From positions 1 through 6,247 of the IMG/VR virus record IMGVR_UViG_2695420523_000001: 6,247 nucleotides of DNA, one strand, 5' to 3'. Of this stretch, positions 3,001-6,000 are shown in pieces (position 1 is the first letter of the stretch; each line of letters starts with the position of its first letter). The DNA comes from a virus (taxonomy: Duplodnaviria; Heunggongvirae; Uroviricota; Caudoviricetes). Made by a program: the position numbers.

Positions 3001-6000
3001 ATTGTCGTTGCCCAGTTGTCGCCGGAATTCACCGCTCGCCTTGTTGACCGCTGGCGAGAACTCGAAGGGGCAACCGCGAAAATACCACAAACCTTTTCTG
3101 AGGCATTGCGCCTTGCGGCCGACCTTGAAGACCAGAAGGCTGAACTGGAGAAACAGCTTGCTCTCGCAGCACCTAAAGTTGAGTTTGCCGATCGCGTTGG
3201 CGAGTCCAGCGGAATTTTGATTGGAAACTTTGCAAAGGTTGTTGGTATTGGTCCAAACAAACTGTTTGCGTGGATGCGCGATCACAAAATCCTTATTGCT
3301 TCAGGCTCCCGGCGCAATGTGCCAATGCAGGAATATATGGATCGTGGCTATTTCACAGTGAAAGAAACAGCGGTCAACACAAATCACGGAATACAGATAT
3401 CGTTCACCACAAAAATCACCGGGCGTGGTCAACAGTGGCTGACCAGAAAGCTGCTCGATAACGGAATGCTGAAAGTAACAGGGGAGGCTGCTTAATGGCT
3501 AAACCAGCGCGAAGGAAATGCAAAATATGCAAGGAATGTTTTCACCCGGCATTCTCAAATCAGTGGTGGTGCTGCCCGGAACACGGAACTCAATTAGCAC
3601 TCGAACGACGAAGTAAAGAACGCGAAAAAGCGGAAAAAGCAGCAGAGAAGAAACGACGACGAGAGGAGCAGAAACAGAAAGATAAACTGAAGATTCGAAA
3701 ACTCGCCTTAAAGCCCCGCAGTTACTGGATTAAACAAGCCCAACAAGCCGTAAACGCCTTCGTCAGAGAAAGAGACCGCGACTTACCATGTATCTCGTGC
3801 GGAACGCTCACGTCTGCTCAGTGGGATGCCGGACATTACCGGACAACTGCTGCGGCGCCTCAACTCCGATTTGATGAACGCAATATTCACAAGCAATGCG
3901 TGGTGTGCAACCAACATAAAAGCGGAAATCTCGTTCCGTATCGCGTCGAACTGATTAACCGCATCGGGCAGGAAGCAGTAGACGAAATCGAATCAAACCA
4001 TAACCGCCATCGCTGGACTGTCGAAGAGTGCTGGGCCATCAAGGCGGAGTATCAGCAGAAACTCAAAGACCTGCGAAATAGCAGAAGTGAGGCCGCATGA
4101 CGTTCTCAGTAAAAACCATTCCAGACATGCTCGTTGAAGCATACGGAAACCAGACAGAAGTAGCACGCAGACTGAAATGTAGTCGCGGTACGGTCAGAAA
4201 ATACGTTGATGATAAAGACGGGAAAATGCACGCCATCGTCAACGACGTTCTCATGGTTCATCGCGGATGGGGTAAAGATACTGATGCGTGATATCCGGCA
4301 GGTTCTTGAGCGCTGGGGTGCATGGGCGGCAAATAACCATGAGGATGTTACATGGTCGCCCATTGCTGCCGGATTTAAGGGACTGATCCCCGAAAAAGTA
4401 AAATCACGTCCACAGTGTTGTGACGATGACGCGATGATTATATGCGGGTGTATGGCTCGCCTTAACAGGAACAACAGCGATCTGCATGACTTGCTGGTTG
4501 ATTATTACGTGTTGGGGGAGACGTTCATGGCGCTGGCACGGAAACATGGGTGCTCTGACACCTGTATAGGTAAACGCCTTCACAAAGCGGAGGGGATTGT
4601 TGAAGGCATGCTGATGATGCTGGGAGTGAGGCTTGAGATGGATCGGTATGTTGAGCGTGAATTGCCGGGAGGGAGAACCTCTGTATTTTATCAGCGAAAA
4701 AATAGTTTACGATCGTAAAAATCTGCATATCATGATAAGAGTGGTTACATTGCCACGCAGCCGAACCCGCCGATGCGCGGGTTTTTTTGTACCCAGAATC
4801 CTGTGAGCTATACGGAAAGTACACAGAAAGGAAGGTGCGACCGCAATTAATAACAAAATCTTAAAAATCGCATATGGCACTATTAGTTTTCTAAATATTG
4901 TATATTTTAAGTATTGCAGGATAACCCTGTAACGAAGTTTGCGTAACAGCATTTTGCTCTACGAGTTTGCCAGCCTCCCCTGGTGGCTGGCTTTTTTTGT
5001 ATCCGTTCAACAGGAATGTTACATACCTCACAATTAAGTCAGTTGAATGTTGTCTGCCCGGATGAGAATTTGTTAGAAAAAAACTGCATGGTGAATCCCC
5101 CTGAGCGGAGGGGCGACTGGTGACGGTATAATCTCTGATTATCAAAACGAGAATGACGAGGGTTTAGTGGCACCGGGCTGAACTCACCGGGAGGCACCCG
5201 GCACCATGCAATGGCACATAGCGCCACTCTCCAGCCCCTCTCCGGAGGGGCTTTCTTATGGACAAAAAAGCCCGCGCTGGGAGACGCGGGCGGCAAGGAA
5301 TAAACAATGAAACGTGAAGTAATATTTCAGCTGGCGAATAATACCCTATAGTAATCACTCTGCGCAACTGCGCGACCTTTTTCGAATTGCGGGCTGTAGT
5401 CTCCCTTCTGCCATTGTCCTGTAACTTCCGGACTTCAGCCCGCTCCTTATTTTACTCACAATATTATCCCGGCCGGGAGGATTCATGGCATTTAAACACT
5501 ATGATGTTGTCAGGGCGGCGTCGCCGTCAGACCTTGCGGAAAAGCTGACACACAAACTGAAAGAGGGCTGGCAGCCGTTTGGTAGTCCGGTGGCTATAAC
5601 CCCTTATACCCTGATGCAGGCGATTGCAGCAGAAGGTGATGTGGTGGTCAGTGGTGCAACTGAGCCGGATTGGTACTACGTCATCGTACTGGCCGGGCAG
5701 TCCAATGCAATGGCTTACGGTGAAGGGCTTCCGCTTCCGGATTCATACGATGCTCCGGATCCGCGCATTAAACAGCTGGCGCGCCGCAGTACAGTGACGC
5801 CGGGTGGGGCTGCCTGCAGATATAACGATATTATTCCGGCCGACCACTGCCTGCATGATGTGCAGGATATGAGTACGCTGAATCATCCGAAGGCAGACCT
5901 GAGCAAAGGGCAGTACGGCTGTGTCGGCCAGGGCTTACATATTGCCAAAAAACTGCTTCCGTATATCCCGAATAACGTGGGGATCCTGCTGGTACCATGC

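Follow-up and report, generated by a model that had tools for sequence, protein, structure and literature searches.

The 766-bp slot between the antiterminator gene Q and a sialate O-acetylesterase gene (positions 4719–5484) in the virus record IMGVR_UViG_2695420523_000001 is best explained, with a probability of roughly 85%, as a set of three known small RNA (sRNA) genes, StxS, an STnc100-type RNA and a convergent antisense RNA, carried by a 933W-type lambdoid prophage and free of any moron. The window, meaning the whole stretch of 6,247 nucleotides (nt) that we analysed (positions 1–6,247 of the IMG/VR record), is the nin-to-late region of a lambdoid prophage, and RefSeq places no annotation beneath the 766-bp gap. 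Coordinates, identities and structural signatures were observed in the window itself, and the homologues suggest its expression, Hfq binding, processing and targets.

The first-pass annotation of the window, made from the sequence alone, had placed four hairpin terminators, an AT-rich patch (about 4850–4920) and GC-rich segments in this slot, more structure than a simple PR'/qut/tR' unit needs, and had suggested one or more small RNAs, possibly PR'-derived. Indeed, a consensus scan of 4600–5600 returned 7 terminator-like sites compared with 1.0 ± 0.9 in shuffled sequences, and recovered all four hairpins at essentially the same coordinates. The GC content was 25% at 4860–4919 and 62–68% at 5160–5279. 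The small RNA suggestion also held: hairpins 1 and 2 belong to a PR'-StxS-tR' unit, hairpins 3 and 4 end STnc100-type and EcOnc08/21/42-type sRNAs, respectively, and with these two further RNAs the slot does exceed a simple PR'/qut/tR' unit. The four hairpins do not make up a single regulatory structure; they are divided among three separate transcription units.

By its sequence, the first half of the slot (4706–4998) is the StxS gene. Its elements, together with the adjoining Q gene, are as follows.

4284–4718, + strand: antiterminator Q gene, 144 amino acids (aa), Pfam PF06530 Phage_antitermQ, E 5e-52
4706–4733, + strand: late promoter PR', −35 TTTACG at 4706–4711 and −10 TATCAT at 4728–4733 (promoter scan)
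4740–4997, + strand: StxS-L, the predicted 258-nt PR'-to-tR' transcript, placed by the 5' and 3' ends of Sakai StxS1/StxS2
4747–4754, + strand: putative Q-utilization (qut) site, to which the 933W feature 20707–20714 aligns
4763–4790, + strand: hairpin 1, stem 4763–4784 with U-run to 4790, +24 to +51 of the PR' transcript (terminator scan)
4911–4915, + strand: RNase E motif GUAUU, +172 to +176 of the transcript
4913–4997, + strand: StxS-S, putative stable Hfq-binding 3' fragment of 74–86 nt, by homology
4969–4998, + strand: tR', the StxS terminator, stem 4967/4969–4991 with T7 to 4998 (terminator scan)

The PR' sequence is identical to the pR' annotated in 933W (AF125520). The starts of Sakai StxS1 and StxS2 mapped by differential 5'-end sequencing (dRNA-seq) both align to 4740, 22 nt past the Q stop codon; in this end mapping we corrected for a coordinate shift between Sakai genome versions. 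The putative qut site sits in a conserved block holding a small hairpin (4741–4756), and the block TAAGAGTGGTTAC around it is invariant in 7 diverged phages. Over 4651–4997, the window is 98.3% identical to 933W without gaps and 96.5% identical to Sp15, and 933W terminators 1 and 2 align to 4766–4788 and 4969–4997. The tR' hairpin is an annotated terminator in 933W, and the StxS 3' end determined by Term-seq aligns to 4997. An Rfam match to Qrr over tR' (23.4 bits against a gathering threshold of 50) was taken as a chance match to a terminator hairpin.

According to Sy, Lan & Tree 2020 (PMC7547250), the PR' transcript of Stx phages with a 144-aa Q ends at tR' after 258 nt. The PR'-derived, Hfq-binding StxS is cleaved by RNase E between GU and AUU near +173, and the stable form activates rpoS, through pairing proven by compensatory mutations, and represses stx1B. 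The same study found that deletion of StxS leaves phage propagation unaffected and that non-toxigenic phages also carry StxS. By homology to the published site, RNase E would cut the window transcript between GU and AUU at 4912/4913, about +173, and release StxS-S. The Hfq peak of EcOnc15 aligns to 4919–4985, and the StxS-S fold has a z score of −3.2. The seed TGTAACGAA at 4928–4936 is a 9-nt perfect complement of positions −115 to −107 of the rpoS leader, the site used by DsrA, RprA and ArcZ. Extending this pairing locally gave a seed:rpoS duplex of −25.6 kcal/mol, and 1 of 500 shuffles was as strong. We used this local shuffle test because a duplex of full-length StxS-S with 200 nt of the rpoS leader returned a meaningless global pairing. 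From the homologues we infer that the StxS of the window is expressed in the lysogen, binds Hfq, is processed by RNase E and activates rpoS.

The role of hairpin 1 within this unit was examined in more distant phages. In the 933W record the equivalents of hairpin 1 and tR' are labelled 'possible rho-independent terminators', and hairpin 1 folds at −21.9 kcal/mol (z −3.4). The block from PR' to hairpin 1 has a mean identity of 76% in Sp4, Lambda_4C10, PhiR30_1 and Stx2_499, which share no sequence with the window beyond hairpin 1; in these four phages the loop varies but the stem does not. In Lambda_4C10, hairpin 1 is the only terminator-like site from the promoter module to the holin gene. These data suggest that in this Q family hairpin 1 serves the PR' module as its proximal terminator, with a second terminator about 200 nt further on in the 933W lineage. 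Hairpin 1 would be leaky, since the published 258-nt species implies read-through, and a PR' RNA of some 50 nt, hitherto undescribed, could arise from termination at it. As a separate observation, the IMG/VR loci L011 (Lambda_4C10) and L012 (PhiR30_1) carry the PR'-qut-hairpin 1 module at 885–1000 with about 77% identity, between a minus-strand OmpD/NmpC-type porin gene on its upstream side and the holin gene directly downstream, and the 200-nt StxS body is absent from both.

The second half of the slot holds two convergent RNAs, the first of which belongs to the STnc100 family.

5050–5079, + strand: predicted promoter, −35 TTGTCT at 5050–5055, 18-nt spacer, −10 TAGAAA at 5074–5079, putative start near G5086
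5057–5263, + strand: STnc100-family sRNA of the EcOnc05/EcOnc27/sRNA103 type, related to PasD (Rfam RF02076)
5233–5252, + strand: STnc100 terminator hairpin, tail to 5261 (terminator scan)

The match to RF02076 covers the model from end to end (1–206 of 206) at 166.9 bits (gathering threshold 47) and E 1e-38. An Rfam scan had been proposed as confirmation that the slot contains neither tRNAs nor known RNA families; the former expectation was borne out and the latter was overturned by this full-length match. Aligned Hfq peaks on the + strand lie at 5117–5242 (EcOnc05) and 5193–5268 (EcOnc27), and the element folds with a z score of −2.8. The helix GCAUGGUG/CACCAUGC is common to sixteen diverged variants; it closes off a variable loop and two conserved hairpins, and on its 3' side come a variable tail and then the terminator. 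Compensatory changes were found in 6 of the 33 consensus pairs in these variants (for example four from G:C to A:U and three from A:U to G:C). The loci were retrieved by an exact 25-nt motif, and that stretch is invariant by construction. A perfect TATAAT at 5127–5132 (+) inside the variable loop is probably coincidental, because no matching −35 was seen and the loop differs in variants.

A scan with a strict promoter consensus found no promoter for the STnc100-type RNA. The pattern TTGTCT/TTGATT-18-TA(A/G)AAA recurs at the same distance from CATGG in the two upstream classes compared, one of them non-homologous; the hexamer spacing was read by eye from a listing of 51 distinct upstream variants (114 loci) and was not counted over all 51. 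This fixed distance argues for a start near 5086, and the 5' end of enteropathogenic Escherichia coli (EPEC) PasD2 aligns to this position. A start near 5031 is possible, because the bands on Northern blots of enterohaemorrhagic E. coli (EHEC) are longer. Zhu, Shabalina & Storz (bioRxiv 2026) likewise concluded that PasD and STnc100 have a common ancestor. We rejected an identification of the window element as PasD because the two have only the 5' domain in common and the PasD seed CCUUGUGAGUUCUGG is absent from the window.

Copies of STnc100 are transcribed in EDL933, one of them confirmed by Northern blot, and vesicles of Shiga toxin-producing E. coli contain STnc100. Overexpression of EcOnc27/sRNA103 raises fimZ and espA, and single nucleotide polymorphisms in it have recently been linked to the risk of haemolytic uraemic syndrome. 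In 933W, the STnc100-family RNA follows stx2B at a distance of 75 nt, and AsxR, convergent to it, comes immediately afterwards. Six IMG/VR loci (L019, L025, L032, L041, L074 and L102) have apparent tandem STnc100-type copies, spaced by about 370 nt, on the upstream side of the esterase gene, an arrangement read from a motif match and a best BLAST match at different positions.

The third RNA lies on the minus strand, antisense to the esterase leader.

5264–5456, − strand: EcOnc08/21/42-type sRNA of about 180–190 nt
5291–5264, − strand: its terminator, stem 5291–5270 with T6 to 5264 (terminator scan)
5463–5491, − strand: predicted promoter, −35 ATGCCA at 5491–5486 and −10 GATAAT at 5468–5463 (promoter scan), putative start near 5456

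The 3' end of this RNA is 3 nt from the STnc100 terminator. The stretch 5178–5600 is 95.5% identical to the part of EPEC prophage PP6 that contains E2348C_1409.E2348C_1408.IGR, an sRNA detected by RIL-seq (ligation and sequencing of interacting RNAs), whose ends align to 5444 and 5264. Pearl Mizrahi et al. 2021 (PMC8550237) list this sRNA as an EcOnc08/21/42 homologue. Consistently, aligned Hfq peaks on the − strand lie at 5265–5337 (EcOnc08), 5343–5428 (EcOnc21) and 5346–5428 (EcOnc42), and a conserved single-stranded stretch of the RNA holds CCUUGCC at 5298–5292. The RNA itself is 93–96% identical to EcOnc08/21/42 of EHEC and to the EPEC sRNA. Identity over the whole downstream block is 89.7% to Sp15 and 87% to Sp4, and 17 of the 18 distinct variants are 88–99% identical, most of them 93–99%. 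The minus-strand terminator shows one compensatory change (G:C to A:U) among the 18 variants, and since most of these are more than 90% identical, covariation tests the structure weakly. The predicted −35 overlaps the esterase start codon, and the predicted start is about 12 nt upstream of that estimated from EPEC RNA coverage. Rfam holds no family for the EcOnc08/21/42-type RNA. The window RNA would be Hfq-bound, as are its homologues on Northern blot or in RIL-seq, and it may act in cis on the esterase gene, by transcriptional interference or antisense pairing, and also in trans. An Rfam match to anti-hemB over the two convergent terminators (19.2 against 49.5) was taken as chance.

Convergent Hfq-bound sRNA pairs were described, with Northern blots, in eight Sakai prophages by Tree et al. 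2014 (PMC4104026), who located them between the moron and a conserved open reading frame (ORF) downstream of PR'. In Sp5, EcOnc27 (+, ~235/247 nt) faces AsxR; in Sp4, EcOnc05 (+, ~222 nt) faces EcOnc08/EcOnc21 (−, ~271 nt), and EcOnc42 is the Sp15 homologue. Among the 107 IMG/VR loci with enough downstream sequence (within L014–L133), the STnc100 partner was of the EcOnc08 type in 29 and had the AsxR/AgvB core in 11. The other 67 comprised 54 that match neither partner, 7 with the leader part only and 6 with the 3' part only, so that the site may host other types of partner as well.

Between StxS and the dyad lies the place of the moron.

4998–5027, no strand: junction, empty moron slot, delimited by two-block BLAST matches to phi296, Nil3, 933W, Sp15 and Sp4

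Downstream of Q, 933W (AF125520) carries pR', qut, two terminators, pT, the tRNA cassette ileZ-argN-argO, a further terminator and stx2AB. Of these, pT, ileZ-argN-argO and stx2AB lie between the equivalents of 4997 and 5028, in agreement with the first-pass placement of the slot at the site of the tRNA and toxin genes of Stx phages. The junction of the window holds about 20–30 unrelated bases. In phi296, Nil3 and Lahn2, the match is split into two blocks by about 470 extra bases with pT and three tRNAs, and in 933W, Sp5 and Sp15 stx is present in addition to pT and the tRNAs. The ileZ-argN-argO cassette of phi296, Nil3, 933W and Sp5 does not occur in the window. The claim that the slot has no tRNA was upheld: ARAGORN found 0 tRNA or tmRNA genes in the window, the Rfam scan gave no tRNA match at E≤1, and inspection of the junction found no remnants of tRNA or stx. 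With no moron at the site, the slot would therefore consist of the three small RNA genes only. The same empty junction was found in 4 of the 15 IMG/VR loci with StxS and the downstream element (L075, L097, L103 and L121). At least 80% of the 766 bases occur in one piece in 63 of 5426 complete E. coli genomes; O104:H4 outbreak strains are among the 63, and no annotation lies under the match. Strains with this prophage include E. coli ERL04-3476/ERL05-1306 at 99.9% identity and O104:H4 C227-11/2011C-3493 at 99.1%. A review (PMC7873438) describes stx as 'bookended' by StxS and the sRNA dyad.

A reading in which the slot encodes small proteins, on minus-strand ORFs of 81–85 aa, is very improbable. 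Several phage records call such ORFs hypothetical proteins, several small coding sequences are annotated at the site in phi296, ribosome footprints have been published for some STnc100 copies of EDL933, and PHROG families of unknown function group the ORFs.

4707–4952, − strand: ORF matching phrog_17306 over its full length (E 3e-52), antisense to StxS
4891–5145, − strand: ORF matching phrog_28474 (E 3.5e-47), across the recombination junction

A third family, phrog_24488, matches a minus-strand ORF only weakly. Against this reading, slot ORFs reach at most 85 aa, the seven tested (43–85 aa) have no Pfam match and RefSeq lists nothing there. In the 81-aa ORF, substitutions fall about equally on the three codon positions (15/18/14 in 12 distinct homologues), as opposed to 11/5/26 in Q and 67/49/202 in the esterase gene used as controls, and we rejected a protein-coding reading of this PHROG-matching ORF on these codon-position statistics. 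The ORF is also broken in 3 of 12 variants, the 84-aa ORF extends over the recombination junction, and the insertions and deletions relative to 933W in the slot alignment have lengths that are not multiples of three. The PHROG matches arise because near-identical DNA has been annotated repeatedly, and phrog_17306 and phrog_28474 probably collect repeated mis-annotations. The first-pass view that the slot holds no credible protein gene is thus well supported. Scarcely conceivable, and the least probable of the readings weighed here, is that the minus-strand element is a new 'anti-sRNA' of the AsxR/AgvB type with a variable 5' end that sponges a core sRNA. It does lie at the exact AsxR position, convergent to STnc100, with a terminator resembling that of AsxR; however, the defining AsxR/AgvB 3' region AGTATCTCATGC...TTGCCCGAACCCAYTCGGGC is absent from the window, and the Rfam AsxR and AgvB models gave no match in the window at E≤1, though both match 933W. 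In addition, homologues of the minus-strand RNA measure about 180–270 nt, against 51–60 nt for AsxR/AgvB. We therefore rejected AsxR/AgvB membership, as the core AGUAUCUCAUGC...UUGCCCGAACCCAYUCGGGC is absent and the Rfam models are silent.

The slot might instead be purely cis-regulatory, a PR'/qut/terminator cassette followed by an esterase leader, with short RNAs as functionless by-products. The tandem pair of + strand terminators that follows PR', with a further two ahead of the esterase gene, would then form a tight barrier whose only role is to keep late transcription shut off in the lysogen, and the conservation of PR', qut and hairpin 1 as a unit and the unaffected propagation of phages deleted for StxS fit such a cassette. 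We consider it improbable. Lying on the opposite strand, the fourth terminator cannot stop PR' transcription. Moreover, the homologues bind Hfq, give bands on Northern blots and are found joined to mRNAs in RIL-seq chimeras, and StxS activates rpoS by a pairing proven with compensatory mutations, the seed of which is intact in the window. Phenotypes or target changes have already been shown in Sakai with StxS deleted and the terminators functional.

Several points weigh against our preferred reading of three sRNA genes. The expression of the RNAs in this prophage is read from homologues. Hairpin 1 looks competent, and efficient termination there would leave little StxS. For the two RNAs of the dyad the 5' ends are uncertain, 5031 or 5086 for the STnc100-type RNA and, for the antisense RNA, 5444–5456 as opposed to a species of about 271 nt on EHEC Northern blots. 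Finally, the 3' tail of the STnc100-type RNA is unlike that of 933W, so that targets need not be shared, and the sRNA103 targets fimZ and espA are suggested, by overexpression.

The three sRNA genes could work as follows. PR' would be constitutive, and without Q, transcripts from 4740 would pass or stop at hairpin 1 and stop at tR'. The product would be the 258-nt StxS-L, from which RNase E cleavage at 4912/4913 would yield the stable Hfq-binding StxS-S, and the seed at 4928–4936 would pair with the rpoS leader and activate RpoS. The STnc100-type sRNA (about 5086–5261) would have a structured, conserved domain at its 5' side and a 3' tail that varies and carries a terminator of its own, and the convergent minus-strand sRNA would run from about 5456 to 5264, antisense to the leader of the esterase gene. 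Once the prophage is induced, RNA polymerase modified by Q would pass all + strand terminators into the esterase and lysis genes. A joint proposal, that the split between hairpin 1 and tR' sets the StxS dose and that the EcOnc08/21/42-type RNA acts in cis on the esterase gene, is tentative and stands well below even odds; if it is true, StxS would be made only by polymerases that pass hairpin 1.

Every hairpin belongs to a published RNA element and nothing in the slot is new: prior descriptions are the 933W annotation of 1999, Hfq cross-linking and analysis of cDNA (CRAC) in 2014, StxS in 2020, EPEC RIL-seq in 2021 and the Pas/STnc100 survey of 2026. An unannotated 766-bp gap is thus fully explained by published small RNAs, and dense terminators 3' of Q in E. 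coli prophages mark an StxS unit together with an STnc100/antisense dyad. In this moron-free copy, the three sRNA genes persist together without toxin or tRNA cargo, which fits sRNAs that serve the lysogen, through RpoS activation and Hfq-dependent regulation, rather than the toxin.

The genes of the window run in the order P, a small ORF, NinB, two antirepressor-type genes, NinG, NinH, Q and esterase. The equivalent of the Q gene is labelled Q in the 933W, Sakai and ERL04-3476 records, and the esterase is annotated as NanS or SASA family in phi296 and ERL04-3476.

5361–5384, + strand: fifth, weak terminator-like hairpin with T-run in the esterase leader (terminator scan), conserved in 933W
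5475–5480, + strand: Shine–Dalgarno sequence GGGAGG of the esterase gene
5485–6247, + strand: 5' part of a sialate O-acetylesterase gene of the nanS-p type (Pfam DUF1737 and SASA)

The last 110 bases 5' of the esterase ATG are almost identical to 933W, and the sRNA region upstream has diverged to about 76%. Elsewhere in the window, Rfam matches on the + strand at 1769–1967 comprise c4-a1b1 (1769–1821, 50.6 bits), isrK (1782–1856, 76.6 bits) and C4 antisense RNA (1883–1967, 75.1 bits), directly 5' of an antirepressor gene with ORF6N and P22_AR_C domains (2021–2698). This is an antisense-RNA immunity module of the P1/P7 type inside a lambdoid nin region. Hairpins with T-runs were also read by eye at 1078–1108 (+) after the small ORF at 762–1052, and at 2715–2739 (+) after the antirepressor gene.

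The first half of the slot has its most general counterpart in the PR'-6S RNA-tR' layout of phage lambda, an established arrangement in which Q antitermination overrides the terminator. In both, the late promoter is constitutive, a qut site is present and a short transcript is terminated unless Q overrides the stop. They differ in the Q family (PF06530 in the window), in the two tandem terminators of the window and in the trans-acting sRNA function that its transcript would have acquired. The closest relatives are the StxS genes of Sp15, Sp5 and 933W, which likewise have a 144-aa Q upstream, an identical promoter and 258 nt to tR', and whose GUAUU at about +173 and rpoS seed are kept in the window; the terminator loop of the window has 2 nt unlike 933W. 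In those systems stx follows, whereas the window lacks it, and a stx1B-repressing role would therefore have no cis-linked target here.

The + strand RNA of the dyad resembles STnc100, EcOnc05 and EcOnc27/sRNA103, which likewise lie after PR' (or after the moron) and before the esterase gene, and it conserves their 5' domain GCAUGGUGAAUCC...CACCAUGC and intrinsic terminator. The 933W copy differs in the middle loop and in the 3' tail before the terminator (76% identity overall), and EPEC PasD2 aligns in the 5' domain only (79% over 47 nt). AsxR, AgvB and EcOnc03 (PMC4104026) are the minus-strand partners in the same convergent dyad of other prophages, but their length of 51–60 nt and conserved 42-nt 3' region are both unlike the RNA of the window. 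The latter shares its position, strand, terminator and single-stranded stretch with EcOnc08, EcOnc21 and EcOnc42 of Sakai Sp4 and Sp15 and with the EPEC sRNA, from which a few base changes set it apart, such as UUUCAUUG versus UUUUGUUG on the upstream side of the seed.

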